NCBI GenBank assembly: GCA_964490975.1
Contig: CAZBEQ010000012.1
Location: 1,559-65,558 of the forward strand
Reading direction: 5' to 3'
Length of the DNA stretch: 64,000 nt
Source of the DNA: an uncultured Oscillospiraceae bacterium
GTDB taxonomy: Bacteria; Bacillota; Clostridia; Acetivibrionales; DTU013
Within the stretch, counting starts at the first letter, position 1. Each line of letters starts with the position of its first letter. A program made the translations under genes and the position numbers. The notes under the pieces are model-generated. The model saw only the letters and a program-made list of their open reading frames with translations. It ran no database searches and was not told where the DNA came from. Below, piece by piece: positions 5,122 through 50,059 of the stretch.

Positions 5122-5715
5122 ATGGCGGACTCAAAAACAAGGATATCAAAGCAGCCGGAAGAACGGCGGCAAGAAATGCTTGATACTGCGATGTATATTT
5201 TTACACAAAAGGGTTATGAACAAACAACCATGCGGGATATCGCAAAAGAAATGAACGTAGTACCTGGCCTTTGCTATCGGTATTTTGAATCAAAGCAAAT
5301 GCTGTATCAGACAGCGGTCAAGGAATACGCTGATGATTATTGCGCTCCTATCATTAACATTTTGAATAATGTAGAAGCAGACGTTAACGCCATACACAGC
5401 TTCCTTGTCGCACATTTTTCCCAAATAGGCGACAATGAAAAATATCACGGTTTTTTTCACAAACCGGAAAACAAGAATTTTGCCATAATGCTTAACCATA
5501 CGATTTGCGATATTCTTGCTCCGCATTTTTCAAATGTGCTTAAGCGTCTTGCCGAAGCGAAAAAAGCGACAGTTTCGGATGCGGACGCATATGCCAGGTT
5601 TCTTCTGTTTGGCTTAGCATCTGTTATGGACGATGACGCAAAACCGGTCGGGCAGCGGATTATACTGGCATCTGAGATCGCAAAAAAATTTTTAACAGCA
5701 GAAAGAAGATACTAA
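5122..5715 (+). CDS. TetR/AcrR-family transcriptional regulator
   Basis: 197 aa. The N-terminal HTH reads TTMRDIAKEMNVVPGLCYRYFESKQ. GGAGG RBS 8 nt upstream. Confidence 0.9.
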   Translation: MADSKTRISKQPEERRQEMLDTAMYIFTQKGYEQTTMRDIAKEMNVVPGLCYRYFESKQMLYQTAVKEYADDYCAPIINILNNVEADVNAIHSFLVAHFSQIGDNEKYHGFFHKPENKNFAIMLNHTICDILAPHFSNVLKRLAEAKKATVSDADAYARFLLFGLASVMDDDAKPVGQRIILASEIAKKFLTAERRY

Positions 5716-5717
5716 CT

Positions 5718-6347
5718 ATGGATTCAAAGGTAAAAACGATGCGGCATTTCAATATGACTGCCGCAGAATATAATAATTCCGGAGACGGAAAATTTGTTCA
5801 GCCGATGTATGAAGCGCTTGTTAGAGAATTGAGAAAGCTCAAAGGCGGCAAGCTGCTTGATGTGGGTTGTGGCAACGGGAATCTATTCGGACTTCTAAAG
5901 GAAGAAGAATATCAGCTTTACGGCATCGATCTGTCAGAGAACATGATTGCCGCAGCAAAGGCGGAGTACTCAGGCTGTGCTGTGTTGCATGTCGCCGACG
6001 CGGAAAAGTTACCGTTTGAAAGTGATATGTTTGATGTCTTGGTATGCAATGCCTCTTTCCATCATTATACTAAACCTGATATTGTGCTTGATGAAATGAA
6101 TCGTGTTACTAAAAACGGTGGTAAGCTCTTGATAGGAGATCCGTATATGCCGCAGCCGACGCGCTGGCTTATGAACGTGTTTACCAAGTATTCTAACGAG
6201 GGTGATTTCCATTATTACGGAATCCGCGAAATGAAACACCTTCTGGAGGCTCACGGATTTGAGATTGTGGAAAATATGCATACCGGCCATCACAAGGTTT
6301 TATTTATAGCAAGGGAAAAATATAAATACAGGAAGGATAATGTGTGA
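5718..6347 (+). CDS. Class I SAM-dependent methyltransferase
   Basis: 209 aa. SAM-binding motif LLDVGCGNGN and a later acidic loop. Starts 3 nt after the TetR stop. Confidence 0.85.
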   Translation: MDSKVKTMRHFNMTAAEYNNSGDGKFVQPMYEALVRELRKLKGGKLLDVGCGNGNLFGLLKEEEYQLYGIDLSENMIAAAKAEYSGCAVLHVADAEKLPFESDMFDVLVCNASFHHYTKPDIVLDEMNRVTKNGGKLLIGDPYMPQPTRWLMNVFTKYSNEGDFHYYGIREMKHLLEAHGFEIVENMHTGHHKVLFIAREKYKYRKDNV

Positions 6348-9275: not shown

Positions 9276-9866
9276 TTATTTTTCCCCCACGACAACAAAC
9301 ATTTCGCTGTTGTCTATTTCTGCTGTTGTATTTAATCCTGCTTGTAAAAAGTAGGTTTTAATCGTGCTTATGTCGGGTAAGTTGTCTTCTGAGACTACCT
9401 CTGAAGAATTTTTGTGCAGGTTGTTTATTTCTTCTCTGCTTTGCGAATGGAAGATAACAAACTTTCCACCCTTCTTCAAGCATTTACTGATAATGCCTAT
9501 AGCCAATTGCTTATCATGAAAATGAGGAAAAACGGAATAACAAATTACAAAATCAAAGAATTCCTTTGGCAAGTCAGCCTCCAAAACATCGCCATAAACA
9601 AAGTCAGTATTTCTATATGAATATTTCTGTTGAGCTACTTCCAGCATTTTCTCGGACATATCGATTGCAATGATTTTGCCTTCTTCTCCAGCCCGTTCGG
9701 ATAAGAAAGGTATAAGTATACCCGTTCCTGTCCCTACATCAAGTATCTTTGCTCCGTTCTTAATGCTGAGCAAGTCCAAAACATATTCGATTTTATTTGC
9801 ATCATGCGTGCAAACAGTATCCCATCTATCAGCCATCAAATTAAAGAATTCCCTTTGAGAAATCAA
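9276..9866 (-). CDS. Class I SAM-dependent methyltransferase
   Basis: 196 aa with a TTG start. N-terminal REFFNLMADRWD and SAM motif ILDVGTGTGILIPFL. Confidence 0.85.
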   Translation of the reverse strand: MISQREFFNLMADRWDTVCTHDANKIEYVLDLLSIKNGAKILDVGTGTGILIPFLSERAGEEGKIIAIDMSEKMLEVAQQKYSYRNTDFVYGDVLEADLPKEFFDFVICYSVFPHFHDKQLAIGIISKCLKKGGKFVIFHSQSREEINNLHKNSSEVVSEDNLPDISTIKTYFLQAGLNTTAEIDNSEMFVVVGEK

Positions 9867-10108: not shown

Positions 10109-11533
10109 ATGCTTGATATCAATAAAGCTTCAATTATAGAAATTCAAAAGGAAATGGATGACGGAAACCTTTCTTCCGTTGATTTAATTATGTACTATAT
10201 TGAAAGAATCGCTAAACTTGATAAGGATGGGCCCAAGCTAAATTCTATACTTGAGCTTAATCCTGACCTGATATTTATTGCAGAGGCATTAGATGATGAA
10301 AGACGAAGAAAGGGTAAAAGGGGTCCGATGCATGGTATCCCGGTAATGATTAAGGACAATATAAATACCGGAGATAAAATGCATACCAGCGGAGGGTCAT
10401 TAGCACTTGCCGATTCATTTGCTCCTGAAGATGCTTTTGTTGTGAAGAAACTTCGTGAAGCCGGAGCAATCATCATGGGCAAATCCAATATGACGGAGTT
10501 CGCCAACTTTATGGCTGAGAATATGCCTTCCGGCTATAGTTCCAGAGGCGGACAGGTCCTTAACCCATATGATAACACAAAAGACCCCTCCGGTTCGAGT
10601 TCAGGCTCGGCTGTTGCGGTAACATCCAATTTCTGTACAGTAGCAGTTGGTACTGAAACTGATGGCTCTATTTTAAGTCCAGCGTGTGTAAATTGTATTG
10701 TAGGCATAAAACCTACAGTTGGGCTGATCAGCAGAAGCGGCATTATTCCTATCAGCCACAGCCAGGATACTGCAGGCCCTATGGCAAAAACAGTCTCGGA
10801 TGCTGCGGTTCTATTAAGCGCTATGATCGGGACAGATGAAAAAGATCCTGCTACCTGGAGAAGTGAAAGTGTTCAGCCGGAACAATTATTGGATGCTGTT
10901 AATAACCCGGATATAGAGGGCTTGCGAATTGGAGTAAGCATAGTTTATTATGAAATGGCTACTCCTGAACAGCGGCAAATACTGGATGAAGCAATAGAGG
11001 TAATGCAGCAAAAGGGAGCTGTCATTATAAAACAGGATAAGCTATCACAAGTTCTTCCGGGTGAAGAGTCATCTGTTTTAGGGCATGAGTTCAAATCAGG
11101 GATCAACTATTATTTATCAAAACTGGGACATCAAAAAATAAAAACGCTTTCCGATATTATAGAATTTAACAAAGCACATGCAGATGAGACACTTAAATAT
11201 GGACAGCAAATATTTGAATGGTCTGAGGAAACAAGTGGAACCCTTACTGAAAGCAAGTATATTAATGATAGGATACGTGATATTGATTTTACAAGAAAAA
11301 ACGGTATAGATAAATTAACGGATGAATATAAGCTGGATGCACTTATGTTTCTTGAGCCTACAAGTCTTGCGGCTGTTTCCGGCTATCCATCGATTATTGT
11401 ACCTGCCGGTATAGATAACGGTACGCCATACGGAGTTCAATTTATCGGGAAACCGTTTAGTGAACCAACAATAATTAAACTGGGCTATGTATATGAACAA
11501 GAGACAAAACACCGCATCGAACCAACGCTATAA
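10109..11533 (+). CDS. Amidase-signature family amidase
   Basis: 474 aa. The amidase signature region reads GGSSSGSAVAVTSNFCTVAVGTETDGSI, with a Ser-cisSer-Lys context. AAGGAG RBS. Confidence 0.9.
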   Translation: MLDINKASIIEIQKEMDDGNLSSVDLIMYYIERIAKLDKDGPKLNSILELNPDLIFIAEALDDERRRKGKRGPMHGIPVMIKDNINTGDKMHTSGGSLALADSFAPEDAFVVKKLREAGAIIMGKSNMTEFANFMAENMPSGYSSRGGQVLNPYDNTKDPSGSSSGSAVAVTSNFCTVAVGTETDGSILSPACVNCIVGIKPTVGLISRSGIIPISHSQDTAGPMAKTVSDAAVLLSAMIGTDEKDPATWRSESVQPEQLLDAVNNPDIEGLRIGVSIVYYEMATPEQRQILDEAIEVMQQKGAVIIKQDKLSQVLPGEESSVLGHEFKSGINYYLSKLGHQKIKTLSDIIEFNKAHADETLKYGQQIFEWSEETSGTLTESKYINDRIRDIDFTRKNGIDKLTDEYKLDALMFLEPTSLAAVSGYPSIIVPAGIDNGTPYGVQFIGKPFSEPTIIKLGYVYEQETKHRIEPTL

Positions 11534-11617
11534 TATACTTGCGGAAAGAGTATTTTTTGCTTAATTTGCGCCAGTTAAAATTTGAAAAATCTTAACTTTT
11601 TCTGTCTCTTAACTTTG

Positions 11618-11665
11618 AAACACCTCTTCATACTGGAATAAAAACCAGTGAAGAGGTGTTTTATG
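11618..11665 (+). terminator. Rho-independent terminator downstream of the amidase gene
   Basis: AAACACCTCTTCA (11618-11630) pairs with TGAAGAGGTGTTT (11649-11661) and is followed by a T-run. Confidence 0.7.
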
Positions 11666-11700
11666 TTGCAAACAAACAGAAGGCTCAATAGAAGAAGTAA

Positions 11701-12041
11701 GAGAAAAAGAAAAAATGGCTTATGGAAAACGCTCATGAATATGGCTTTATTTTGAGATATCCTAAAGATAAGTCCGAAATTACGAAAATAAGCTATGAGC
11801 CCTGGCATTATCGATATATTGGCCTTCCAAACTCGTATTACTGTTACGAAAACAATTTGTGCCTTGAAGAATATATGGATTTTTATCAAAAGGTGGCAGC
11901 TATTCTATGTCTATTGACAAAACAGACTATACTGTATATTATGCAACTGAAAACGATGGTTTAATCGATGTTCCGGCTGACAAAAGCTGCAAGGTCTTGC
12001 CCGACAACACGGACGGGTACGTTGTTATGGTAAAGGGGTGA
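11701..12041 (+). pseudogene. VanY-type D-alanyl-D-alanine carboxypeptidase (M15B), 5'-truncated and frameshifted
   Basis: The fragment starts mid-domain at KWLMENAHEYGFILRYPKDKSEITKISYEPWHYRYIG (the EPWHxRYxG motif). No N-terminal half is present, and a terminator lies directly upstream. The C-terminal tail GGSYSMSIDKTDYTVYYATENDG...VVMVKG continues in another frame from about 11892. Confidence 0.65.
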
Positions 12042-12045
12042 GTTT

Positions 12046-12498
12046 TTGGACTATAACGTATTGATATGTGATGACGACAAGGACATATTGAATGCACTGG
12101 AAATATACCTGAAGCAGGACGGATACAATGTGATAAAGGCAGAAAATGGAATACAGGCTTTGAAAATACTAAAAGTATCCGTTGTACACCTGATCCTGCT
12201 TGACGTAATGATGCCGCAAATGGATGGTATAATGACTGCCGTGAAAATCCGCGAGGACAACATCAACATACCGATCATATTTTTGAACGCGAAAAGTGAG
12301 GATACAGACCGGGTTTTAGGCCTCAATATGGGCGGAGACGATTACATAACAAAACCCTTCAATACCGTCGAACTGCTTGCCAGAGTAAAAGCGCATCTGC
12401 GGCGTTATGCCAGATTGGGCGGCCTTGCGGGACAAGCCACGGAGTCGCAAGAGTCCTGGAACATATATACAACAGGTGACCTTGTTTCAGCAGGTTGA
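12046..12498 (+). pseudogene. OmpR-family response regulator lacking its winged-helix DNA-binding domain (deletion)
   Basis: The receiver domain is complete (DDDKDI...LDVMMPQMDG...DDYITKPF...LLARVKAHLRRY). The ORF stops after about 150 aa, right at the start of the expected effector domain (..IYTTGDLV..). About 85 aa are missing. Confidence 0.6.
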
Positions 12499-13528
12499 TG
12501 AGTATGCCCATGAGAATCCTGGCGTTTCCTTTGGCAGCCTACATTCTTTTTGCATTTTGGCTTGTAAGACTGATTGTTTTCCTGCAAACAGGCAAAAAGT
12601 ACAAAAAAATATCCTGGTATAAATTCTACAAGCAGTTTCCAATCAAACAGCCTGTTTCTGTTTTTGTCACATGCATTTCACTGATGTCGTTTATATATTT
12701 GCTTTTGATATAAATGCAGGAACTATTTTTTTGACATTATCTCATTTTGTCTTAGCAACGGTATTAGCTGAATATCTGTCAAGGTTTTCGGAAGCAAGAG
12801 CCGCCCAATTTGAGAAAATCGCAGAGGACAGGCTGAAAGCAGAGAGGTTAAAAACCGAGCTTATTGCCAATGTATCTCATGATATAAAAACACCTATTAC
12901 TTCCATAATAAGCTATGCTGACCTTATCAGCAGGCAAAGTACCGAAAACGAGCTGCTGAAGGAATACACTTCGGTGATACGCACAAAGTCGTTGAGACTG
13001 AAGTCATTGATGGAGGATCTGATCGAAGCCAGCAAAGCCGGAACCGGCAATATAAAAATGACGATGGAGACCATTAATTTTTGTGAGCTTTTGGGGCAGA
13101 TCATGGGGGAGTTTGACGAGCAGATGGATAAAAATCAGCTTCAGCTCATAGCGAAAATTCCCGAGACAGCAGTGAGTATTCAAACTGATGGAAGGTATTT
13201 GTGGAGGGTCCTGGAGAATGTATTTTCCAATGCGGTCAAATACTCCATGAGCGGGACACGGGTGTATGCTGATCTGTCAAGCACAGGCGATATGCATATT
13301 TTCACATTGAAGAACATATCAAAGGACCCGTTGAATATTTCTACAGACGAACTCACCGAACAGTTCGTCAGGGGTGACCGCGCCCGTTATACCGAGGGCA
13401 ACGGACTTGGGCTTTACATTGCCAAGAGCCTGACCGAAGCAATGGGCGGACAGTTCAGCATAAACATAACCGGTGATCTGTTTGAAGTACAGATATGCTT
13501 TAAATATGCATGCTGTCGGATACATTGA
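12495..13528 (+). pseudogene. Sensor histidine kinase split by a frameshift
   Basis: The N-terminal TM part (12495-12713) and the kinase core (12671-13528) lie in different frames. The core carries the H-box ELIANVSHDIKTPITSI, the N-box NAVKYS and the G-box GNGLGLYIAKS. Joined, they would give an HK of about 344 aa. Confidence 0.6.
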
Positions 13529-13846: not shown

Positions 13847-13925
13847 TTGACTATATTCACAAAATGATATACAATACTATTGTATCATGTATACATGGTA
13901 CAATAGTATTGTATATCATTTTGTG
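13847..13925 (+). promoter_or_regulatory. Promoter of the LarA-like operon overlapped by a 68-bp near-perfect palindrome (candidate GntR operator array)
   Basis: TTGACT (13847-13852), a 17-nt spacer and TACAAT (13870-13875). The palindrome at 13858-13925 has 33 of 34 positions complementary. It contains two 15-bp sub-palindromes, TACAATACTATTGTA (13870-13884) and TACAATAGTATTGTA (13899-13913), plus a central CATGTATACATG. Confidence 0.65.
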
Positions 13926-13937
13926 AGGGTGATTTAA

Positions 13938-15212
13938 TTGCAAACAATTAGAATTCCTTATTACACATCTCATCTGGATCTACATGTTGACGAAAATAAC
14001 CTCGAAGCTGTTTTACTGCCCAAAATGCACGAATATAAAACTGAAAAGACAGAGCAGGAAATTATTCGTGATGCTTTGGCAAATCCTATCGGTTCAAAAA
14101 CATTGGTGGAAATTGCGAAAGGCAAGAAGCGCATAACATTGGTTACAAGCGATCACACAAGAGCAGTTCCGAGTAAAATCACTCTGCCGATACTACTTGA
14201 AGAAATACGTAAGGGCAGCCCGGATGCTGAGATCACTATTCTGATTGCTACCGGCCTTCACAGGGCAACTACAGAAGCCGAACAAAGAAAAATGTTCGGG
14301 GATGTAATTGTTGATAATGAGAAGATTGTCGTTCATGATGCTTTTAAAGAAGAGGACATGAGGAAAATCTGCACATTGCCATCCGGCGCAGAGTTTGTGG
14401 TTAACCATCTGGCGGTAGACTGTGATTTGCTTTTGACAGAGGGCTTTATAGAGCCACACTTTTTTGCCGGATTTTCAGGCGGAAGGAAAAGCATATTGCC
14501 GGGAATCTGTTCCAAGGAAACTGTAAATGAAAACCATTCATACAAAGCTATAGCTCATCCAAAGGCTGCCGCAGGTGTTACTGACGGGAATCCTATTCAT
14601 GAAGACATGTTATATGCCGCACGTAAGGTAAATGTTCAGTTTACATTTAATGTTGCATTGGATGGGAACAAAAAAATTATTGCTGCATTTGCAGGTGAAT
14701 TGGCCGAATCACATAAGCAGGGCAGCGAGTTTATAAGAAAATTATCGCAGGTCCGGAAGGTTACAGGAGATATAGTAGTTACCAGTAACGGAGGATACCC
14801 GCTTGACCAGAATCTTTACCAGTCACCCAAGGCTGTAGCTACTGCAGAGGTGTGCGCAGGGGATGACGGCATTATTATAATGTGTGCCTCTTGCTTTGAC
14901 GGCATTGGCGGAACACATTTTGAAGAGCTGATGCTTTCCGGCACTATTGATGAAATAACTGAAAAATTATCAAAAATCCCTCCCAGGGAAACTATCCCTG
15001 AACAGTGGTGCGCACAGATATTTTCACGCATTCTTAAAAAGCATAAAATCATACTTGTTACAACATATCTTGACCATGAGCTTGTGCGGAAGGTAAATAT
15101 GATTCCTGCATCAAGCCCTGACGAAGCTCTTGATATTGCCTACGGCATTAAGGGAAGGGATGCCCGCGTTGTTGTAATCCCTGATGGCGTAGCTGTAATG
15201 GCAGTCAATTAA
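13938..15212 (+). CDS. LarA-family nickel-pincer-nucleotide-dependent 2-hydroxyacid racemase/epimerase
   Basis: 424 aa with a TTG start after a GAGGGTG RBS. By my count, SDHTR places D72/R75, GLH places H108, and EPHFFAGFSGGRKSILPG places H174 and K184. NENHS places H200. These are the positions of the catalytic His pair, the cofactor-tethering Lys and the Ni-ligand His of L. plantarum LarA. Confidence 0.9.
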   Translation: MQTIRIPYYTSHLDLHVDENNLEAVLLPKMHEYKTEKTEQEIIRDALANPIGSKTLVEIAKGKKRITLVTSDHTRAVPSKITLPILLEEIRKGSPDAEITILIATGLHRATTEAEQRKMFGDVIVDNEKIVVHDAFKEEDMRKICTLPSGAEFVVNHLAVDCDLLLTEGFIEPHFFAGFSGGRKSILPGICSKETVNENHSYKAIAHPKAAAGVTDGNPIHEDMLYAARKVNVQFTFNVALDGNKKIIAAFAGELAESHKQGSEFIRKLSQVRKVTGDIVVTSNGGYPLDQNLYQSPKAVATAEVCAGDDGIIIMCASCFDGIGGTHFEELMLSGTIDEITEKLSKIPPRETIPEQWCAQIFSRILKKHKIILVTTYLDHELVRKVNMIPASSPDEALDIAYGIKGRDARVVVIPDGVAVMAVN

Positions 15213-15247
15213 TAAATATTAACTTATCATAAAAGGAGGTATGAAAA

Positions 15248-15565
15248 ATGGATCAGAAGCTTGCACTGAGAGTAACTTACAAGGATAACGTTGCTACAAT
15301 ATTTGCAGAAGTTTCGGCCAATACCAGTGTTGAGGTAAGGGATAAGAAAGGCAACAGCGAGGTTATAACCGCAAATGACGACATTCCGTACGGACATAAG
15401 ATTGCGGTTGTTAATATTGCAATCGGAGAAATAATTTTCAAGTATGGAGAGGAAATTGGAGTAGCAACTAAAGAAATTAAAAAAGGTGACTATGTGCATG
15501 TCCACAATCTCGACAGCATGCGCGGACGTGGAGATTTACAGGATAATAGAAAGGGGGATGAGTAG
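15248..15565 (+). CDS. UxaA/SuyA-type dehydratase small subunit (SAF domain)
   Basis: 105 aa with an AGGAGG RBS. The SAF-like N-terminal domain of altronate-dehydratase-family enzymes is encoded here as a separate polypeptide (DDIPYGHKIAV..I..GE.IFKYGE.IG.AT..I.KGDYVH.HN). Confidence 0.8.
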   Translation: MDQKLALRVTYKDNVATIFAEVSANTSVEVRDKKGNSEVITANDDIPYGHKIAVVNIAIGEIIFKYGEEIGVATKEIKKGDYVHVHNLDSMRGRGDLQDNRKGDE

Positions 15566-15567
15566 TT

Positions 15568-16731
15568 ATGCAATTTATGGGATATAAAAGGCCTAACGGG
15601 AAAGTAGGCGCCCGTAATCAAGTGGCGATTATTCCTTCTGTTGTTTGTGCAAATGATGTTGCTCAGGCTATAATGGCTCATACTAAAAACACTGTAGGTT
15701 ATTTTCATCATCAGGGCTGTTGTCAGCTTCCGCCGGATCTTGAACGTGTCACACAAACACTGATAGGTCTGGGATGCAGCCCCAATGTTGGTGCAGCTCT
15801 TGTAGTAAGTCTGGGGTGTGAAGGAACTGATCATGAACGTTTAGTTGAGGAAATAAGAAAGACAGGTAAACCGGTCGAAATCATACGTATTCAGGAATTA
15901 GGTGGTACAAGCCGTGCTATTGCGGCAGGTATTGATGAGGCGCAGAGAATGTCCATAGCTATATCCGGCCAGCAAAGAGAGCTTGTTGATATAAGCAATT
16001 TGGTTATGGCAATTAAATGCGGTGCTTCCGATGCGACTTCAGGTATGGCTTCAAATTGCGTTATCGGATATGTGGCAGATAAGATTGTTGATCTGGGCGG
16101 AACTGTGGTGTTTGGTGAGACCACTGAATTCATCGGCGCGGAGCATATATTGGCAAAAAGAGCAAGAACACCAGAAATAGGACAAAAGATCATTGATATT
16201 GTTGATAAAATGGAAGCAAGGGCAAGATCACTGGGATGTGATATGCGTAAGGGCCAGCCTACCCCGGGAAATATTGCAGGCGGATTGAGCTCCATCGAGG
16301 AAAAATCACTTGGGGCAATAGTTAAATCGGGCACAAGGACAATTGAAGGCGTACTTGAATATTCTGAAATGATTACCGACCATAAGGGGCTTTGGATTAA
16401 GGATACACCCGGACGTGAGCCTGAAATATTGACAGGTATGGCATGTACCGGTGCACAGTGCATGTTGTTTTCAACCGGAAGGGGCGCTCCCCAGGGATTC
16501 CCGACAATGCCCGTAGTAAAAATATGCGGTAATCCAAACACATATGAGAGAATGCAGCATGATATGGACATCAATGCCGGGCTCATTATAAAAGGTGAAA
16601 AGACCATTGAGCAGGTTGGTGAAGAGGCATTTGAGTATATGCTTCGTGTTTTGTCAGGCGAGACAACAAAAAATGAAACTCTCGGTTATTATGGCTCAAT
16701 AGAGATATTCCCGATTGGACCGGTAATATAA
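15568..16731 (+). CDS. UxaA/SuyB-type dehydratase large subunit
   Basis: 387 aa, starting 3 nt after the small-subunit stop. It reads as the altronate/galactarate dehydratase C-terminal catalytic domain (Cys-rich GCxxxG, IKCGASDATSG, LFSTGRGAPQG). Confidence 0.85.
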   Translation: MQFMGYKRPNGKVGARNQVAIIPSVVCANDVAQAIMAHTKNTVGYFHHQGCCQLPPDLERVTQTLIGLGCSPNVGAALVVSLGCEGTDHERLVEEIRKTGKPVEIIRIQELGGTSRAIAAGIDEAQRMSIAISGQQRELVDISNLVMAIKCGASDATSGMASNCVIGYVADKIVDLGGTVVFGETTEFIGAEHILAKRARTPEIGQKIIDIVDKMEARARSLGCDMRKGQPTPGNIAGGLSSIEEKSLGAIVKSGTRTIEGVLEYSEMITDHKGLWIKDTPGREPEILTGMACTGAQCMLFSTGRGAPQGFPTMPVVKICGNPNTYERMQHDMDINAGLIIKGEKTIEQVGEEAFEYMLRVLSGETTKNETLGYYGSIEIFPIGPVI

Positions 16732-16854
16732 TTACTTCTTTATTTTATTTTAGTTTTCTTATACAAGTGCAACATTCCAGCAATTAACACAACAGCTGTA
16801 GAACTTTTTTAAGTATAATTAAAAATACTAGGAAACTAAGAATGGAGGGTTTAT

Positions 16855-18261
16855 ATGGGTCCTGTTCCTGCTTTACTAATAGGTATTGCTTTGCTATTGA
16901 TCCTTGTTATAAAAACTAAAATTCAGGCTTTCCCTGCACTTGTGATCTCCGCTCTTGCAATAGGGCTCCTTTCAGGTCTCAGTGCTGGCGATGCTATTTC
17001 AGCAGTGACTGCCGGATTTGGCAACACAATGACCAGTATTGGTATAGTTATCGGTCTTGGCTGTGTTATGGGCAAGTTCATGGAAAAGAGCGGTGCTGCA
17101 AAGAAAATGGCACTTACTATTCTAAAGCTTGTTGGTATTAAAAAAGCTGATATTGTTTTAGGACTTACAGGTTTTTTGGTATCCATCCCTGTATTTTGTG
17201 ACTCAGGTTTTGTTATCCTTTCTTCTCTTGCAAAGGAATTTTCCAGACTTACTAAAAAATCAATGATACTAATAGGCGGAATGCTTGGCATGGGTCTTTA
17301 TATAACTCACTTCCTTGTTCCGCCAACGCCTGGTCCGCTCGCTGTTGCAAGTACATTTGGCATTGATATCGGCTTGTTTATACTTTGTGGTCTTGCTTTA
17401 TCAATTCCCTTGTTCATCGCTGCAGTCTTCTTCTTCCGATGGATATCAAAGAAATTTGAAGCCATTATCCCTGAGAGAGATGAAGAGGATCTGAAAAAGC
17501 TTTCACCTGAGCAAAGAGAAGTTCTTGCTAAAATTGAAGCTAAACAGGCAAAAGGCCTGGAGTTAACAAGTGAGGACTTTGGCGAGATGCTCAAGGACGA
17601 TACGCTTCCTCCGGCAGGCATATCCTTTGCTACATTGCTCGTTCCTGTACTTCTTATTCTTGCAAATACTATAGCAGATATCGCAAAGCTTGAAGGAACA
17701 GCAGCATATATTTTTGATCTTATCGGTACTCCTGTAACTGCAATATTTATATCGGTTCTTATATCAATATATCTGCTTTCAAGGAAACTCACAAAGGAAG
17801 AATGTATAAAGATAACTGAAGCGGCTCTTGCAGATGCTGGTCTTATAGCGTTTGTAACTGCAGCAGGCGGTTCACTTGGCAATGTTATCAAGGTAACCGG
17901 TGCAGGTACCATAATGGCGGAAGGTATTGTTTCTGCAAGTCTTCCTGTTATTTTCGTCCCATTGCTTGTCGGAACGATCCTTCGTTTCCCGCAGGGCTCA
18001 GGTACTGTTGCTATGATCACCGGTTCTGCGATCTTAGCTCCTATGCTTCCGACATTAGGCATTAACCCGGTAATCGCAGGTCTTGCAATATGTACTACTG
18101 CAATGTGCCCGTCCTATCTTAATGATTCATATTTCTGGGTTGTTACAAGGTTCAGCGGACTGCCTGTGAAAACTTCACTAAAATCGTGGTCTATTGGTAC
18201 AATTTTTATACCCATAGTAGGCTCTATAATACTCATTGCTATAAATGCATTATTCTTTTAG
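16855..18261 (+). CDS. GntP-family (gluconate:H+ symporter family) permease
   Basis: 468 aa and polytopic. The overall pattern and motifs (..FGNTMTSIGIVIGLG..MGKF.E.SGAA..) are typical of GntP permeases. Confidence 0.9.
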   Translation: MGPVPALLIGIALLLILVIKTKIQAFPALVISALAIGLLSGLSAGDAISAVTAGFGNTMTSIGIVIGLGCVMGKFMEKSGAAKKMALTILKLVGIKKADIVLGLTGFLVSIPVFCDSGFVILSSLAKEFSRLTKKSMILIGGMLGMGLYITHFLVPPTPGPLAVASTFGIDIGLFILCGLALSIPLFIAAVFFFRWISKKFEAIIPERDEEDLKKLSPEQREVLAKIEAKQAKGLELTSEDFGEMLKDDTLPPAGISFATLLVPVLLILANTIADIAKLEGTAAYIFDLIGTPVTAIFISVLISIYLLSRKLTKEECIKITEAALADAGLIAFVTAAGGSLGNVIKVTGAGTIMAEGIVSASLPVIFVPLLVGTILRFPQGSGTVAMITGSAILAPMLPTLGINPVIAGLAICTTAMCPSYLNDSYFWVVTRFSGLPVKTSLKSWSIGTIFIPIVGSIILIAINALFF

Positions 18262-18304
18262 GTTGAAAATTAAATTCAGAAGCATTTGTATAAGAGTTTC
18301 ACTT

Positions 18305-18335
18305 CTCCCCCCGGCTATGCCGGGGGGCTTTTTAT
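18305..18335. terminator. Bidirectional rho-independent terminator between the convergent GntP and GntR genes
   Basis: CCCCCCGGC (18307-18315), a TAT loop and GCCGGGGGG (18319-18327), followed by CTTTTTAT. Confidence 0.8.
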
Positions 18336-18340
18336 ATGTA

Positions 18341-19021
18341 CTAAACAGTGTGCATGCTCTTCATGCTGGACATATATTCAAGTATTTTGTCTCGTGCCAG
18401 TTGTAAATGTATTTTATTTATCCTGTCAGCTTCCATAACATCTCCCTTTAAAATGTTATGGACAATGTTAAGGTGTTCCTTTAAAGAGTCATCAAATCTT
18501 TGCTGATCCGTAAGTGAATATATCCTGAATTGCTGTGTCATTGACGATACCTTTTCATAGGTCGATTGCACAAGTAAATTGCCGCCAAGGCTAATAATCA
18601 AATTATGCAGCTTGGCATCCAGCTTTGTATATAGCTGTAGATTACTTTCATAATGGGCCTTTTTTAGATTACAAATAAACTCCAAGAAAACCTTTTTATT
18701 TTCATCGGTCAAGTTGTCGAAGGATTTTTTTATCGCATACGATTCCAGCATAACACGTAAATCGAAAATATCTTCAATGTCTTTTGGGGTTATTTCCTTT
18801 ACAAATACGCCCTTATTTGGCACGTTTATAACAAGACCATCGCTGGCAAGCTGTCGAAGCGCTTCGCGCACAGGAGAACGGCTGACGTTCAGCTCATTTG
18901 CCAGTTCATTTTCCTGCAGCCACTTACCCGGTTCATAAATCCCGTTGCATATCTGTTTTTTTAAAATCTGATATACTTGTTCTTTTATAGTATTAGCAAT
19001 AGGACGCGATAAATTTGACAT
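18341..19021 (-). CDS. GntR-family transcriptional regulator, FadR subfamily (FCD domain)
   Basis: 226 aa. The N-terminal wHTH reads LQENELANELNVSRSPVREALRQLASDGLV. The C-terminal all-helical FCD-like domain contains His residues. Confidence 0.9.
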   Translation of the reverse strand: MSNLSRPIANTIKEQVYQILKKQICNGIYEPGKWLQENELANELNVSRSPVREALRQLASDGLVINVPNKGVFVKEITPKDIEDIFDLRVMLESYAIKKSFDNLTDENKKVFLEFICNLKKAHYESNLQLYTKLDAKLHNLIISLGGNLLVQSTYEKVSSMTQQFRIYSLTDQQRFDDSLKEHLNIVHNILKGDVMEADRINKIHLQLARDKILEYMSSMKSMHTV

Positions 19022-19134
19022 ATGATTTATACCCCTGTAGTACTTTGTAATAATATCATTATAACTAAGATAATAATTAAATCAATAATCGAGATAAAGA
19101 TTACCTCTTGTGAGTAAATTTTGAGAAATTAAAA

Positions 19135-19356: not shown

Positions 19357-20337
19357 ATGAACAATCCTGCAAAGCCGAATGGACCATTAGTGACCCATAT
19401 TTATACGGCAGATCCTTCTGCTCACGTGTTTGATGGGAAAATATACATTTATCCCTCTCACGATCTCGATTTGGATATAGCCTCAAATGACAATGGCGAT
19501 CAGTATATGATGGAAGATTATCACATATTGTCCATGGACAGTATAGATTCACCTTGTGTTGACAATGGGGAAGCGCTGAATATCAGGGATATTCCATGGG
19601 CATCTGTTCAACTATGGGCTCCTGATGCTGCTTATAAAAACAATACATATTATTTATATTTTCCGGTAAGGGACAAGAACGGAATTTTCCATCTCGGAGT
19701 TGCCACAAGCCCGAATCCGGCAGGATCTTTTGTTCCTCAGGCAGAGCCGATCCCCGGAAGCTTCAGCATAGATCCGGCTGTATTGGTTGATGATGACAAC
19801 AGAGCATATATTTATTTTGGAGGCCTCTGGGGAGGACAGCTGGAAAAGTGGAAAAACGGCAGCTTTGATCCTGAAGGCGGGGAATCGGCTGCGACAGAAC
19901 CGGCTCTGGGCCCAAGAGTAGCGGAGTTGAGTGATGACATGCTTACTTTTAAAGAGGCGCCTGCTCAGATATCCATCGTGGATGCAGACGGCAAGCCCAT
20001 TCTCGCCGGCGACGAGGAAAGAAGGTATTTTGAAGGTCCCTGGATGCATAAATATAATGGATACTATTACCTGTCCTATTCTACCGGAACGACCCATTAT
20101 ATCGTTTATGCAATCAGCAAAGATCCAAAGGGACCGTTTGTGTATAAGGGCAAAATACTTACTCCGGTAATCGGCTGGACAACACATCATTCAATAGTTG
20201 AGTTCAAGGGTAAGTGGTACCTGTTCTACCATGACAGCTCACTGTCGGGTGGACAGGACAACAAGCGCTGTGTCAAGTTTACCGAGCTGAAATACAATGA
20301 AGATGGGACCATCCAGACGATTGAACCGTATAAGTAA
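19357..20337 (+). CDS. Glycoside hydrolase family 43 (beta-xylosidase / alpha-L-arabinofuranosidase type)
   Basis: 326 aa. The N-terminus NPLVTHIYTADPSAHVFDGKIYIYPSHD carries the catalytic Asp, with later WAPDA and EGPW motifs typical of the GH43 five-bladed propeller. Confidence 0.9.
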   Translation: MNNPAKPNGPLVTHIYTADPSAHVFDGKIYIYPSHDLDLDIASNDNGDQYMMEDYHILSMDSIDSPCVDNGEALNIRDIPWASVQLWAPDAAYKNNTYYLYFPVRDKNGIFHLGVATSPNPAGSFVPQAEPIPGSFSIDPAVLVDDDNRAYIYFGGLWGGQLEKWKNGSFDPEGGESAATEPALGPRVAELSDDMLTFKEAPAQISIVDADGKPILAGDEERRYFEGPWMHKYNGYYYLSYSTGTTHYIVYAISKDPKGPFVYKGKILTPVIGWTTHHSIVEFKGKWYLFYHDSSLSGGQDNKRCVKFTELKYNEDGTIQTIEPYK

Positions 20338-20432
20338 ATCGACGTAGGGTGATTGAATCAGTAGTATTTAGAAGACTACAGGCTATGGAAAATACTTGAT
20401 AATTATTTAAAAAGCTTGTACAAGTAAACAAT

Positions 20433-20470
20433 AAATGCTATATTAACAATACAAACTTAATATAGCATTT
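20433..20470. repeat. 14-bp perfect AT-rich inverted repeat overlapping a candidate promoter
   Basis: AAATGCTATATTAA (20433-20446) and TTAATATAGCATTT (20457-20470). It overlaps the candidate promoter TTGTAC (20416-20421), 17-nt spacer, TATATT (20439-20444). It could be an operator or a weak GH43 terminator. Confidence 0.5.
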
Positions 20471-20471
20471 T

Positions 20472-20558
20472 GATAAGGGCAAATTCACTGAAAGGTGAAG
20501 ACGCAAAGCCGTGAGTCTAAAGCAGAATAATTGCCAAGATTGTCAGGTTGCCGGATAT
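20472..20558 (+). promoter_or_regulatory. c-di-GMP-I (GEMM) riboswitch aptamer
   Basis: AAGGGCAAAUUCACUGAAAGGUGAAGACGCAAAGCCGUGAGUCU...CAGGUUGCCGG. It has the conserved GGCAAA, a GAAA-tetraloop hairpin (UUCACU-GAAA-GGUGAA), the invariant GACGCAAAGCC core and the 3' GUUGCCG segment. Boundaries are approximate. Confidence 0.8.
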
Positions 20559-20566
20559 ATGTAAAT

Positions 20567-20597
20567 AAGCGGGCAAACTGTGCCTGCTTTTTTATTT
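20567..20597 (+). terminator. Intrinsic terminator forming the riboswitch expression platform
   Basis: AGCGGGCA (20568-20575), loop AACUG, then UGCCUGCU (20581-20588; 8 bp including one G-U), followed by UUUUUUAUUU. It lies 24 nt before the cheY start. Confidence 0.75.
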
Positions 20598-20620
20598 ACA
20601 CTTATTTCAGGAGGAAGAAA

Positions 20621-21004
20621 ATGAAAAATGTTCTTATTGTTGATGATGCTGCATTTATGAGGATGGCATTGAGAAAAATGCTCGAGAAGCTAGGGTTTAC
20701 GGTAGTTGCTGAAGCAGAAAATGGGGCTGAGGGAGTACGCAGATACAAAGAATTCCATCCTGAGCTGGTAACGATGGATATAACTATGCCCGAAATGGAT
20801 GGCATTAAGGCCTTGAAGGAGATCATTTCATTTGATGCAAATGCAAAGGTCATTATGGTATCGGCGCTTGGACAGGAATCGTACATAAAGGAAGCTATAA
20901 TTGCAGGCGCCAAGTATTTCATTGTAAAACCGTTCAAGGAGGAACACGTGGGTACTGTACTCAATAATGTAATAAAAGCGGAGAACAATTCCAAGCCAGC
21001 TTGA
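20621..21004 (+). CDS. cheY: CheY-like single-domain response regulator
   Basis: Start re-set to the ATG at 20621 (AGGAGG at 20609-20614). The longer ORF from 20531 would run through the terminator. 127 aa: MKNVLIVDDAAFMR...VTMDITMPEMDG...KPF. Confidence 0.9.
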   Translation: MKNVLIVDDAAFMRMALRKMLEKLGFTVVAEAENGAEGVRRYKEFHPELVTMDITMPEMDGIKALKEIISFDANAKVIMVSALGQESYIKEAIIAGAKYFIVKPFKEEHVGTVLNNVIKAENNSKPA

Positions 21005-21158
21005 CAGGTAATTACCATGCTTACGATAACCCAAAAAAAGAATGTTAATACCAAAGATAATTGTAATAGGGGGGGTGTTGCCGCAGCATGTAAGCTGTAA
21101 GACTGGATATGGTGTTAAGGTAACTAAATCTCTGAGAAACAGGAGGCGATAAAAAAGA

Positions 21159-21659
21159 ATGTCTACAGTAATTGAGAACATAATGAACACAGAAGAAGAT
21201 ACACAAATTAATCGGTTTTTAACATTCGTACTAGACAGGGAAACATATGGTATTGAGATCATGTATGTGACGGAGATAATAGGGATACAGACAATAACTG
21301 AAATTCCTGAATTGCCAGATTACATGAAGGGTATCATCAATCTTCGCGGCAAGATAGTTCCGGTAATGGATGTAAGGCTCCGCTTCAGGAAAGAACCCAG
21401 AGAGTACAATGACAGGACATGTATTATAGTGATCGATGTTAATGAAATATCTATAGGCTTGATCGTAGACAGCGTGTCAGAAGTTCTTACGATACCTGAA
21501 CAGGATATCGTAGATCCTCCGAAGGTCAATAATAACTTTGGCAGCAGGTTCATTAAGAAGATAGGGAAAGTGGACAGTAATGTAAAACTGCTGCTTGATT
21601 GTGACAAGCTCTTAACAGAAAATGAACTAAATGACTTTGCAGAAATTCTTGAAAAATAA
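21159..21659 (+). CDS. cheW: Chemotaxis coupling protein CheW
   Basis: 166 aa. CheW-like domain [22 protein letters not shown]...[15 protein letters not shown]...[11 protein letters not shown]. Confidence 0.9.
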
Positions 21660-21684
21660 ATTACAAGTAAAGGAGCAATATACT

Positions 21685-24102
21685 ATGCAATGGTTTAAAA
21701 ATTTGAAAATCGCAGCCAAACTGTTGATTGGCTTCATAATCGTAGCTATTATTGCAGCTTTTGTCGGAATTATTGGCATAGTAAATATCAATAATATTAA
21801 TGAAGCTGACACAGAGTTATATCAACTTGATACACTTGGCATTCAGTATGTAAGTGTTGCTTCACATGATTTTCAAAGACTGAGATACAACACACTTATG
21901 ATAACTGTTGTAGATGATCCCACAACACGTGAAGAAACTATCAAAACGGTTAATAATCTGTTACTTAGCATTGAAGAAGCTTTAAACAACTACAACAAAT
22001 ACTGTATCACAGATGAAGCTGACCAGGCAGCTAGTGATCTGGTAATAAGTCAATGGGGACAGTACCGTGCTTATATTCAACAGTATCAGGATTTGATCAA
22101 TGCTAATAAGTTTGATGATGCGAGAAAGATTATAATAGTTGATTCTGATTCAACTGGAGATGATTTGAGAGAAACGCTTAAAAGTATAACGACACAAAAA
22201 ACCACCGATGCTAAAAATACGTCAGAATCAAATAATAATAATGCCCGGCAAGCTGTTCTACTGATGATTATTGTGATTGCTGCTGGAGCTGTATCGGCAA
22301 TAATACTTGGAATAATTATATCCAGAATTATAAGCAAGCCGATCAATAAAATGGTCGATGCTATGGATAGAATTGCCAATGGAGATGTCGAAGTAAGTAT
22401 TGACATAGATACAAAAGAAGAGATTGGTGATCTGGCTAGTTCATGCAGAAAGACTACCGATTCAATAAGGCTATTGATACAGGAAGCAAACAAACTGACG
22501 AATGCGGCAGTGGAAGGACAACTTTCAGTCAGAGGAGATGTAGCCCAACTCAAAGGAGGATATAGAGACATCGTCAATGGTGTTAATAATACACTTGATG
22601 CTATTAATAAACCATTTATCGAATCTGAAACGGTTCTTGGAAAAATTGCTTTAAACGACTATACCCTTCAGATGACCGGACAATACAAAGGATATTTTGA
22701 AAAATTTGCAAAAATAATTAACGATGTGCGCACAAGACTGTTAAGCGTACAGGATGCATTTGAACGTGTCGGGAAAGGCGATGCCAGCAGATTGGCAGAG
22801 TTCGAGAAGGCAGGAAAACGATCAGAGAATGACAGGCTTATACCGGCTTGTATATCTGCTCTGAAGTCAATCAATGGTATCATTGCCGAAACCGGTAAAA
22901 TAGCCGATGCTGCAGCCAATGGCAATTTAAGTGTCAGGGGCGACAAGGATGCTTTTGAAGGCGGATACAAGGATATCATAGCAGGCTTTAACAGGACATT
23001 GGATACAATAGCAGAACCGGTGAGCGAATTGTCAGGTGTCATGGCGAGACTTGCTAATAACGATTTGACATTAGGTATGCAGGGCGAATATAAAGGCGAG
23101 TTTGCTAAAATGAAGGATGCTGTCAACTCAACGATCGATTCTTTAAATGTTGTAATGACTGAGATAAAATCAGCGTCAGAGCAGGTAGCATCCGGAGCCA
23201 AGCAGGTTTCCGACTCAAGCATGGCACTGTCACAGGGAGCGACCGAGCAGGCGAGCTCGATAGAAGAACTTACGGCTTCACTTGAAGAAATATCATCGCA
23301 AACTAAATTGAATGCAGATAATGCAGGCAAGGCTAATGAATTGGCTGAAAATGCAAGATCCAATGCTATAAAGGGCAATGATCAAATGAAAGATATGCTC
23401 AAGGCTATGGATGAAATCAATATTTCTTCAAGTAATATAAATAAGATAATAAAAGTAATAGACGACATAGCATTCCAAACAAATATCCTAGCTTTGAATG
23501 CAGCTGTTGAAGCAGCAAGAGCGGGACAGCACGGCAAGGGTTTTGCTGTTGTCGCTGAGGAGGTAAGGACTCTCGCGGCACGTTCCGCCAATGCAGCAAA
23601 AGAAACTACAGACCTGATTGAAGGTTCAATAAATAAGGTAGAGGCAGGTACAAAAATAGCAAAGGAAACTGCGGATGCATTGGGTAAAATTGTTTATGAG
23701 GTTGATAAGGCGGCCGATCTTGTAAACTCAATATCAACAGCATCAACTGAACAGGCAGCGGGTATCGAACAAATCAATCAAGGTATAATGCAGATATCTG
23801 AAGTAGTACAGACGAACTCAGCTACATCACAGGAAAGTGCGGCGGCAAGTGAAGAACTATCAAGCCAGGCAGAGACATTGAAGGACATTGTGGGGACGGT
23901 CAAGTTGAAAAAAGTAAACAGATCATATGGCGAGCTTGATGAAATCAGTCCAGAAGTCCTCAAAATGCTCGAAAGCATGTCAGGAAAAAGGGTTAACAAC
24001 CATGACAGCTTTAACAGTACAAAATTTGCAGGTAAAAAAAATAGCGAGCAAGTAAGAGATAAAAAGATAGCTCTTAGTGATAAGGAATTCGGAAAGTATT
24101 AA
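21685..24102 (+). CDS. Methyl-accepting chemotaxis protein with a duplicated HAMP-containing module
   Basis: Start at the ATG at 21685 (AAAGGAG RBS). N-terminal sensor flanked by two TM helices. A duplicated module of about 136 aa is present (..[34 protein letters not shown].. and ..[34 protein letters not shown]..). The C-terminal MCP signalling domain reads [34 protein letters not shown]. Confidence 0.9.
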
Positions 24103-25118: not shown

Positions 25119-25147
25119 TTGTATGATTAAGTGCGAAATGATATAAT
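25119..25147 (+). promoter_or_regulatory. Sigma-A-type promoter of the Phd-Uma2 fusion gene
   Basis: TTGTAT (25119-25124), a 17-nt spacer and TATAAT (25142-25147), 20 nt upstream of the ATG. Confidence 0.55.
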
Positions 25148-25166
25148 ATTTTTGGAGGTACATTTT

Positions 25167-25934
25167 ATGGATAAGTTAAAATACCAGGAAGGCGTTGTTG
25201 TAACTGCTACAGGGCTTAAGCAGAATCTGGGCAAATATATGGATCTGGTCGAACAGCAAAATGATGTTGTAATTACAAAAAACGGAGCAAAGATTGCGAG
25301 GTTGACTCCATATATAACGGATATCGAACAATATTTCACCGTCAGAGAAAAGGCACTGGACTACCAGTATGGCGGGAAAAAGGTTTCATATGAAGAATTC
25401 ATGTCGATATATGAAAACAGCACACTGAGGATGGAATACATCAATGGCGAGATATATCTGCTGGGCTCTCCGACCATTGGCCATCAGGATATTCTTGGAA
25501 GGCTCTATTTGATTTTTAATAAATATTTTGAAGGAAAGAAATGCAGGGTTTTTCTTGCTCCTTTCGATGCCCATTTCTGGAAGAAGGATTTCAAGGAGCC
25601 TGATGTGATGCAGCCGGATGTACTTGTAGCATGCGACCTGGAGGGCAATGTCATCGAAAAGGGGAAATACATGGGTACGCCGTCACTGGTGATCGAGATA
25701 CTGTCCGAAAGCACACGCACAAAAGATATGGTCGACAAGCTGAACACATATATGCTTTCCGGAGTAAAGGAATATTGGGTCATAGATACAAAGCAGGAAA
25801 TGATCATGATATATGATTTTGCTGACCGTGGTATCGATTATCTGAAGCTTTACAATAAGGGTGATACAGCGGCTTCAATAGCTTTCAACGGCTTGTCTGC
25901 AGACGTCGCTGCTTTGTTCAGTGATTTGTTGTAA
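25167..25934 (+). CDS. Fusion protein: N-terminal Phd/YefM-antitoxin-like domain and C-terminal Uma2-family (DUF820) PD-(D/E)xK endonuclease domain
   Basis: Start re-set to the ATG at 25167 (GGAGGT RBS). Residues ~5-60, VVTATGLKQNLGKYMDLVEQQNDVVITKNGAKIARLTPY, fit the Phd/YefM pattern. The rest (MEYINGEIYLLGSPTIGHQDI...PDVLVACD...PSLVIEILSESTRTKD...K...Y..GVKEYWVID) fits Uma2. Confidence 0.75.
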   Translation: MDKLKYQEGVVVTATGLKQNLGKYMDLVEQQNDVVITKNGAKIARLTPYITDIEQYFTVREKALDYQYGGKKVSYEEFMSIYENSTLRMEYINGEIYLLGSPTIGHQDILGRLYLIFNKYFEGKKCRVFLAPFDAHFWKKDFKEPDVMQPDVLVACDLEGNVIEKGKYMGTPSLVIEILSESTRTKDMVDKLNTYMLSGVKEYWVIDTKQEMIMIYDFADRGIDYLKLYNKGDTAASIAFNGLSADVAALFSDLL

Positions 25935-28506: not shown

Positions 28507-28619
28507 TTTAGGCAGGTTTTTTGCGTGTGTGGCAGCACTGCAACCTATGGATAAAAATATTGAAAACTGCTATAATAGTTCACATATATAATAGATGTTT
28601 AGATAAAGGTGGCTGTATT

Positions 28620-49825: not shown

Positions 49826-50059
49826 GTCCAACCTCACCTTTCGCAGCAATTATGTCACAGCTGCAACAAATATCTGATAATGTCCGATGACCCACCGGTT
49901 ACTAATGCCATAGCTTACCTGCATACCTACTGTATATTTTACCATTAATCTCTAAGACGTAGAATACATATATTTTGTTTCAAAAACCCTAAATTTCTAT
50001 AGTCAATTGTGTTAAAATATGTATGCTTGTGGTCAATATCATTGGGAAGGAAATTAAGA

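Follow-up and report, generated by a model that had tools for sequence, protein, structure and literature searches.

The subject of this analysis is an operon at positions 13847-19021 of a 64,000-nucleotide (nt) stretch of the genome of an uncultured Oscillospiraceae bacterium (contig CAZBEQ010000012.1, positions 1,559 to 65,558; hereafter the window). In this operon, a homologue of the nickel-dependent lactate racemase LarA is encoded directly upstream of a split dehydratase of the UxaA/GarD family. Near-obligate pairing of the two in both directions and across phyla, which co-varies with a signature in the substrate pocket of LarA, supports the view that the LarA homologue is functionally tied to the dehydratase. 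We hold with moderate confidence that the genes form a catabolic operon under GntR repression, whose substrate is a small (C3-C4) 2-hydroxy carboxylic acid bearing a leaving group at C3. The triad of LarA and the two dehydratase subunits is a widespread module of gut and other anaerobes that is built from known enzyme families, and it probably turns both mirror forms of a small hydroxy acid into a central keto acid. A reading made earlier from the sequence alone (the sequence-only reading) had placed LarA, a small SAF protein, a UxaA-type protein and a GntP permease in one operon with a convergent GntR/FCD regulator. Open reading frames (ORFs) and Pfam domains agree with this; the four-gene set and its convergent regulator are real, and all five genes, the promoter and the hairpin were found where that reading had put them. 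The genes are:

13938-15212, + strand: LarA-family, nickel-pincer nucleotide (NPN)-type 2-hydroxyacid racemase/epimerase of 424 amino acids (aa) with a TTG start, Cys358/Pro297 subclade, LarAH42-like (Pfam Lar_N and LarA_C)
15248-15565, + strand: SAF-domain small subunit of the split UxaA/GarD-family dehydratase, 105 aa (Pfam SAF)
15568-16731, + strand: large subunit of the split UxaA/GarD-family dehydratase, 387 aa (Pfam GD_AH_second and GD_AH_C)
16855-18261, + strand: GntP-family permease of 468 aa, the presumed substrate importer (Pfam GntP_permease)
18341-19021, - strand: GntR/FCD (FadR-type) regulator of 226 aa, the presumed repressor of the operon (Pfam GntR and FCD)

The tie between the two enzymes is seen best in their gene neighbourhood. 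A contig scan with one genome per species returned 80 loci. In all 68 signature-bearing genome loci with enough sequence, the SAF gene and then the large-subunit gene lie directly 3' of the LarA gene. Residue 358 is Cys in these 68 paired LarA relatives, except for one Val and one Ser, and the eight relatives without the dehydratase pair carry Glu, Gln or Asn at this position. Position 297 is a second near-perfect signature, with Pro in the paired set and Val in nearly all unpaired sequences. A neighbour-joining tree groups the paired sequences in a single clade, in which two nested Asn358/Val297 sequences without a dehydratase are the only exceptions. These belong to Agathobaculum and Oscillospiraceae metagenome-assembled genomes (MAGs; loci L028 and L038), where no dehydratase is found downstream; they look like cases of secondary partner loss together with a change of the pocket. 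The reverse test, with loci found via the dehydratase, placed LarA directly upstream in 62 of the 64 metagenome loci with room for it. At the two exceptions (L111, 2249-4063, and L140, 4300-6000), one has a group II intron reverse transcriptase/maturase in that place and the other about 1.4 kb of AT-rich non-coding DNA. Members of the clade come from Clostridia, Synergistaceae and Spirochaetes as well as from a Desulfovibrio MAG, an Atopobiaceae MAG and a Dehalococcoidia MAG. Strains that carry the triad and can be cultured include E. asparagiformis DSM 15981, Hungatella effluvii DSM 24995 and Sedimentibacter saalensis DSM 13558. Gene-neighbourhood analysis thus bears out the functional coupling that had been proposed from the window. 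In the Desulfovibrio sp. MAG (L013, 3844-12764) both a second, divergent SAF and large-subunit pair (38% identical) and TctC-TctB-TctA lie directly upstream of the triad; this single cluster holds two split dehydratases and one LarA.

The LarA homologue has all it would need for NPN chemistry. Lar_N (PF09861, 223.8 bits) and LarA_C (PF21113, 177.4 bits) together span its full length. The alignment to LarA of Lactobacillus plantarum (5HUQ) has no gaps up to about residue 334, and D72 and R75 (within SDHTR, 71-75), H108, H174, K184, H200, Y294, Q295 and K298 are numbered as in that enzyme; the first six are exactly those which the sequence-only reading had counted. The catalytic histidines (H108, H174), the NPN-tethering K184, the Ni ligand H200 and the carboxylate-binding R75, Y294, Q295 and K298 are kept in 67-69 of 69 clade members. 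With this complete catalytic set, the earlier prediction of a real NPN enzyme appears sound. The fold and the catalytic, NPN-tethering, Ni-ligand and carboxylate residues are the same as in LarA of L. plantarum and Thermoanaerobacterium thermosaccharolyticum (2YJG), to which the protein is 45% and 49% identical; identity to LarAH42 is 67%. The two LarA enzymes have Thr or Glu and Val where the window protein has Cys358 and Pro297. They also differ in context, since the window LarA has an obligate dehydratase partner and no larBCE, lactate permease or lactate-oxidising genes nearby.

The protein scores 582.4 bits with the lactate-racemase equivalog model NF033504 (cutoff 460), and annotation pipelines therefore call it a lactate racemase, as they do its relatives. 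It sits in the lactate-racemase branch and is an orthologue of LarAH42 by identity and synteny, and it can no longer be regarded as an unplaced member of the superfamily. Lactate racemases "usually exhibit F, F, W and E/Q" at positions 175, 176, 358 and 359 of LarA1 (PMC11770544). The window protein has F175, F176 and W357, and in the fourth place, where E/Q is expected, it has Cys358; Pro297 replaces Val. Position 358 of the window protein corresponds to T359 of LarA1 and to Gln357 of the Isosphaera enzyme. The equivalent residue is one of the four named selectivity positions (PMC11770544) and touches the substituent on the substrate C-alpha in LarA co-crystal structures (PMC11851776). Its pocket is a small one, with less polar character than that of lactate racemases.

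The assayed orthologue is LarAH42. In [Clostridium] asparagiforme (Enterocloster asparagiformis) DSM 15981 (L026), the LarA gene fits the two primers used to clone LarAH42, and the SAF and large-subunit genes come after it; LarAH42 has the same F, F, W, C selectivity residues as the window protein. An in vitro study of 2024 (Urdiain-Arraiza et al., J Biol Chem; PMC11770544) assayed the purified enzyme after loading it with NPN; NPN was required, and small 2-hydroxy acids were the substrates. The kcat/KM values (M-1 s-1) were 610 for 2-hydroxybutyrate, 200 for lactate, 12 for glycerate and 3-5 for dihydroxybutyrates, compared with ~1e5 for lactate in true lactate racemases (PMC11770544). With a KM of 4-7 mM, the efficiency with lactate is ~500x below that of the true lactate racemases (PMC11770544). 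In view of this weak activity on lactate, 2-hydroxybutyrate and glycerate, the native substrate is probably outside the assayed set. The authors remarked on the cysteine (Cys357) and did not settle the physiological role; their paper uses the word "dehydratase" 0 times (PMC11770544). The LarAH42 locus differs from the window in that the triad ends a long cluster with TctCBA, aconitase-family, PrpD, Lyase_1 and enolase-superfamily genes, and GntP and GntR are not there.

One could argue that the transcript simply combines two independent functions, an ordinary lactate racemase and a dehydratase for an unrelated acid. The NF033504 score, the retention of all lactate-binding residues and the racemisation of lactate by LarAH42 would fit. 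Such an arrangement does not account for near-obligate two-way adjacency across distant phyla, nor for the loss of C358 and P297 in exactly the two nested sequences that have no dehydratase, and the lactate efficiency of LarAH42 speaks against it. The lactate context of LarAH group 1 consists of a lactate permease, larBCE and a flavin adenine dinucleotide (FAD)-dependent lactate dehydrogenase with electron-transferring flavoprotein (ETF) (PMC7583248). None of these is found near the triad, whose neighbours are the SAF/UxaA pair, GntP and GntR. We therefore consider independent functions very improbable.

The partner of LarA appears to be one complete enzyme split into two chains, because the two ORFs jointly cover the TIGR03248 (galactarate dehydratase) profile: positions 2-79 are matched by the 105-aa subunit and 107-506 by the 387-aa subunit. 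The sole relative of the large subunit in the PDB is GarD of Escherichia coli (6U7L; E = 8e-53). UxaA and GarD belong to the same three-domain family, and the same abstraction of the alpha-proton and beta-elimination to a 2-oxo acid is predicted for the window enzyme. Unlike them, it consists of two polypeptides, its large subunit reaches only 230.2 bits with TIGR03248 (cutoff 730.85) and it has no uronate or aldarate pathway context. An assignment as GarD equivalog was rejected, since the score is far below the cutoff, and for GarD and UxaA alike it was rejected because uxaB, uxaC, kdgK and kdgA-like genes are not conserved nearby. Across phyla the large-subunit orthologues of the triad are 64-92% identical and more conserved than their LarA partner. 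In an Escherichia albertii plasmid (L085, 5657-10324) a split pair that is 46% identical is accompanied by a KdgT-type permease and a sigma-54 regulator and has no LarA; judging from this locus, that subfamily works without a racemase.

The sequence-only reading had called the dehydratase SuyAB-type. The two-subunit architecture is indeed common to both (105 + 387 aa here, 96 + 393 aa in Paracoccus versutus), but the likeness ends there. The pair on plasmid pTAV3 of P. versutus was taken as SuyAB because a sulfate-exporter-family, a hisD-like and a GntR gene lie beside it, the arrangement expected for suyAB-suyZ. Identity to this context-inferred pair is 36.8% for the large and 34.5% for the small subunit, and other family members without an assigned function are nearer (42-49%). 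Across 160 loci, neither a sulfite exporter nor a sulfite reductase is a recurring neighbour of the triad. SuyAB orthology was rejected on these grounds. The logic is nevertheless that of SlcC/ComC and SuyAB in Chromohalobacter and Paracoccus, where stereo-inversion feeds a stereospecific, two-subunit UxaA-family lyase that yields pyruvate, and a GntR gene adjoins the suyAB-like pair of P. versutus as it adjoins the operon in the window. The difference is in the means: SlcC and ComC are two NAD(P) dehydrogenases that act via the keto acid, whereas inversion in the window is predicted to be by an NPN enzyme; and suyAB is accompanied by a sulfite/sulfate exporter, which the window dehydratase is not.

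It is tempting to speculate that the module is a sulfolactate route after all, with LarA racemising (S)- and (R)-3-sulfolactate in place of the SlcC/ComC two-dehydrogenase system and a SuyAB-like sulfo-lyase forming pyruvate and sulfite. The subunit sizes (~100 and ~390 aa) are those of SuyAB, one source names a triad orthologue "(2R)-sulfolactate sulfo-lyase subunit beta", SuyAB is R-specific and the known pathways require a racemising step, and the triad is present in a Desulfovibrio MAG. Moreover, Cys for an acidic or amide residue at 358 would relieve a clash with an anionic group. However, Trp357 is kept and no basic residue is gained, whereas malate racemases use H/Q and K for the second anionic group (PMC11770544). 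Sulfite is a competitive inhibitor of LarA (PMC11851776), the carriers of the triad are mostly fermenters, and to this come the low identity to SuyAB and the lack of recurring sulfite genes. Altogether, a sulfolactate route is unlikely.

The permease gives little away about the substrate. It scores 337.8 bits with PF02447 and 282.6 bits with TIGR00791, just under the cutoff of 292.75; substrate-specific GntP equivalog models are all far below cutoff, the best equivalog-type NCBIfam hit being PRK09821. In 29 of 52 metagenome loci the next gene after the dehydratase is a GntP gene. The carrier beside the triad varies, with GntP in about half of the loci and TctABC or an NhaC-type protein otherwise, and only carrier and regulator recur with the triad. 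Residue 361 of LarA was considered as a marker of the carrier type and rejected, as Arg in the spirochaete and Desulfobacteraceae members follows phylogeny instead.

A GntP-family permease would suit a sugar acid, which the sequence-only reading had also offered as substrate. LarA would then be a C2-epimerase for a tetronate, pentonate or hexonate (compare GntE and mannonate/gluconate), and the dehydratase would form a 2-keto-3-deoxy sugar acid to be processed by enzymes encoded elsewhere. UxaA and GarD act on hexonates and hexarates, a GH43 gene adjoins the regulator, and on a roseobacter plasmid a fused UxaA is accompanied by LarC and a LarA-like gene amid pentonate genes. The pocket, however, argues against this: F, F, W and C make it small and lactate-racemase-like, unlike the E, V, A, H of gluconate epimerases, and the hexonate-epimerase models of NCBIfam reach only 42-56 bits. 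Gluconate and mannonate are not listed among the LarAH42 substrates (PMC11770544), and the GH43 gene is a separate transcription unit that is not conserved. Neither a 2-keto-3-deoxy sugar acid kinase/aldolase of the kdgK/kdgA type nor a uronate isomerase is conserved among the neighbours of the triad loci. We give the sugar-acid route a low probability, and a hexonate appears an unlikely substrate. As no kinase/aldolase is conserved, the product probably enters central metabolism directly.

The neighbours of the triad in other genomes point in two directions. Some Oscillospiraceae loci have a Cys/Met-family pyridoxal phosphate (PLP) enzyme directly downstream, and the alpha and beta subunits of serine dehydratase, alanine racemase and an aminotransferase nearby; these are pyruvate- or 2-oxobutyrate-yielding enzymes. 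At other loci the triad is beside TctABC, aconitase, PrpD, fumarase/ADSL family, malic enzyme, Lyase_1 and enolase-superfamily genes. The presence of TctABC, malic enzyme, fumarase and PrpD genes at several triad loci would be in line with a dicarboxylate route, in which the pair handles tartrate stereoisomers or a related hydroxy-dicarboxylate and delivers oxaloacetate. A precedent is LarAH group 5 (the Mar1 clade), in which a LarA-superfamily gene is invariably beside altronate-dehydratase-family genes and sometimes TctC/TctA, like the pairing in the window. Table S1 of Desguin et al. 2020 lists, without comment, the altronate dehydratase COG2721 as 100% associated with this group, and TctC/TctA as linked to 26% (PMC7583248). 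Group 5 is a different clade with a malate-type H/Q-K pocket, and the dicarboxylate route may hold there. The window protein lacks this H/Q and K pair of the malate- and tartrate-active homologues and scores 287 with NF052595 (LarAH5; cutoff 462); malate and tartrate are not listed among the substrates of LarAH42 (PMC11770544), and the carrier in the window is GntP. For the window we regard a dicarboxylate as highly unlikely.

Regulation of the operon can be read from the following elements around the genes:

13847-13875, + strand: predicted sigma-70-like operon promoter, -35 TTGACT (13847-13852), 17-nt spacer, -10 TACAAT (13870-13875) (consensus scan 10/12)
13858-13925, no strand assigned: 68-nt perfect palindrome over the -10 and the transcript start, core CATGTATACATG at 13886-13897, the probable GntR/FCD operator (from sequence only)
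18307-18327, + strand: predicted intrinsic terminator hairpin of 9 GC pairs with loop TAT and, after it, CTTTTTAT, in the gap between the permease gene and the convergent regulator gene
19058-19085, - strand: predicted promoter-like site of the regulator gene, TTGATT-16-TATAAT (consensus scan 10/12)

FadR-type operators are palindromes of the t.GT...AC.a type. Inside the 68-nt palindrome is the 10-mer ATGTATACAT (13887-13896), of which the window has exactly one copy. The same 10-mer precedes LarA by about 30-100 nt in some 30 related loci, which belong to Clostridia, Spirochaetes and Desulfobacteraceae, and it is usually the sole copy per locus. The regulator has a GntR winged helix (PF00392) and an FCD domain (PF07729), and a GntR/FCD homologue flanks the triad, in either orientation, in about 40 of the 80 genome loci. 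Domains and palindrome are those of the FadR (FCD) subfamily, with binding predicted, and the natural reading is that the GntR/FCD protein would repress the operon at the palindrome.

The intergenic gaps along the operon are 35, 2 and 123 nt. The description of the four genes as tightly spaced thus fits the triad but not the permease, which would be coupled more loosely. The 123-nt gap 5' of the permease gene (16732-16854) holds a TATAAT (16814-16819) without a good -35, and an internal promoter or separate transcription of the permease is possible. Likewise, the GC hairpin between the convergent genes is there as described, but the T-tract is on the + side only, and a bidirectional terminator therefore has only partial support.

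Our model of the operon, which would make it a route for a C3-C4 acid, is as follows. The FCD-type GntR protein would sit on the ATGTATACAT palindrome over the promoter and be released on binding the substrate or a derivative of it. The acid would be imported by the GntP permease. The LarA-type enzyme, with its covalently tethered NPN, would invert C2 via transient hydride abstraction and thereby interconvert both stereoisomers. The two-subunit, metal-dependent dehydratase would take only one of the two C2 configurations, remove the C2 proton and expel the substituent on C3, which could be water or possibly a thiol or another group. Tautomerisation of the resulting enol would give a 2-oxo acid, with pyruvate or 2-oxobutyrate as the likeliest product, and this would enter central metabolism without a further dedicated enzyme. 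Flow from the racemase to the dehydratase is the direction we infer. In outline this is what the sequence-only reading had suggested, an inverting NPN enzyme that feeds a stereospecific lyase; what falls away is SuyAB, the sugar acids and the unplaced LarA.

As to the substrate, we commit only to the class of C3-C4 2-hydroxy acids with a leaving group on C3. Judged by pocket size, LarAH42 kinetics and neighbours, acids of the glycerate or 2,3-dihydroxybutanoate type rank about equal with thiol or thioether lactates such as 3-mercaptolactate, followed by sulfolactate and then by tartrate and hexonates; this order is a matter of judgement, and all of them are candidates. Thiol and thioether lactates are candidates that fit the pocket and have no other support. 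A further, rather speculative possibility is that Cys358/Pro297 LarA and its obligate split UxaA partner make up an unrecognised two-enzyme route from both enantiomers of a C3-substituted lactate to pyruvate (or from a C4 analogue to 2-oxobutyrate), with a specificity new to both families. Examples would be a racemase/dehydratase pair for glycerate or 2,3-dihydroxybutanoate, or a 3-mercaptolactate-type C-S lyase that releases H2S or a thiol in gut anaerobes.

Several points weigh against a GntR-repressed operon for a C3-C4 acid. On chemical grounds the obvious candidates would be glycerate and 2,3-dihydroxybutanoate, but LarAH42 prefers an ethyl to hydroxylated side chains and these compounds are its worst substrates, which weakens them as candidates. 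The di- and tricarboxylate-enzyme neighbours at other loci would point away from a simple C3 monocarboxylate. The activity of the dehydratase and its joint action with LarA are predicted from protein sequence, and operon structure, repression and terminator from consensus matches. The search peptides included EQWCAQIF, and Cys358 sequences were thus over-sampled, which leaves the correlation of Cys with the dehydratase unaffected. Finally, larB, larC and larE were not found in the window, as the sequence-only reading had already stated, and the cofactor would have to come from genes outside it. No AIRC, DUF111 or PP-loop match was seen among the scanned ORFs of the 64 kb, which were nearly all non-overlapping ORFs of at least 180 aa, the largest ORF (1673 aa, 44828-49849, - strand) being outside the scan; Pfam labels for 5122-6347, 9276-9866 and 10109-13528 were taken from the gene table only. 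In the conserved neighbour clusters of related loci no larB, larC or larE was recognised, nor were lar genes seen beside the LarA genes without a dehydratase pair, whose neighbours are amidase/GatB, tRNA synthetase, EamA and others.

Just upstream of the operon (11722-13528) are three apparent remnants that look like a decayed two-component cluster: an ORF of 80 aa resembling, by eye, the C-terminal portion of a VanY-type D-Ala-D-Ala carboxypeptidase, a response regulator of 150 aa with a receiver domain only, and a histidine kinase that seems to be in two pieces, one of 72 aa (membrane) and one of 285 aa (HisKA/HATPase). On the other side (19357-24102) the GH43 glycosidase gene is succeeded by genes that encode a CheY-like receiver and CheW (both by Pfam) and a putative methyl-accepting chemotaxis protein of 823 aa (by eye), and none of these is kept beside the triad in the other genomes compared. 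A single ORF at 25131-25934 joins a Phd/YefM antitoxin-like N-terminus to a Uma2 putative restriction-endonuclease domain. At 28521-29294 there is a lone LUD-domain (LutC-like lactate-utilisation) gene, with no LutA or LutB partner adjacent.

The pairing of LarA-like with UxaA-like proteins is not confined to this clade. On plasmid pSPTER of Sporomusa termitida (L084, 4335-7974) a divergent "lactate racemase domain" protein without SDHTR is followed by an SAF and a large-subunit gene, with TctCBA upstream and a convergent GntR gene; the large subunit is 49% identical to that of the window. This is an independent LarA-like/UxaA pairing. The Sporomusa gene was considered as malate racemase LarAH62 and rejected, as it neither matches the primers nor has the SDHTR motif. 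Plasmid P6 of Pseudosulfitobacter pseudonitzschiae (L082, 5788-10708) has in a row a GntR gene, a fused 515-aa altronate-dehydratase-family gene, a LarA-like gene and a gene for a LarC nickel-insertion protein, and this row adjoins L-arabinonate dehydratase and DapA-family genes. Together with the Cys358 clade and group 5, the pairing is thus found in at least four separate lineages. It is recurrent and has in part been recorded already; no characterised pair was found in the literature searched, as the sequence-only reading had supposed. Because four lineages pair LarA-like with UxaA-like proteins, the feeding of a stereospecific dehydratase by an NPN epimerase may be a general principle of hydroxy-acid catabolism.

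The label "nickel-dependent lactate racemase" is attached to thousands of genes from anaerobes of the gut, digesters and sediments, and one dehydratase orthologue alone is found on 632 contigs. For the Cys358 subclade this name is probably wrong. The strict pairing opens a direct way to find by experiment which substrate LarAH42 natively uses, a coupled assay of racemase and dehydratase with the 2-oxo acid as readout, and it would give a first function to a large, highly conserved subfamily of split UxaA-type enzymes. If the two-enzyme route to pyruvate or 2-oxobutyrate is true, this would be the first physiological role besides lactate racemisation for an NPN enzyme of the lactate-racemase branch.

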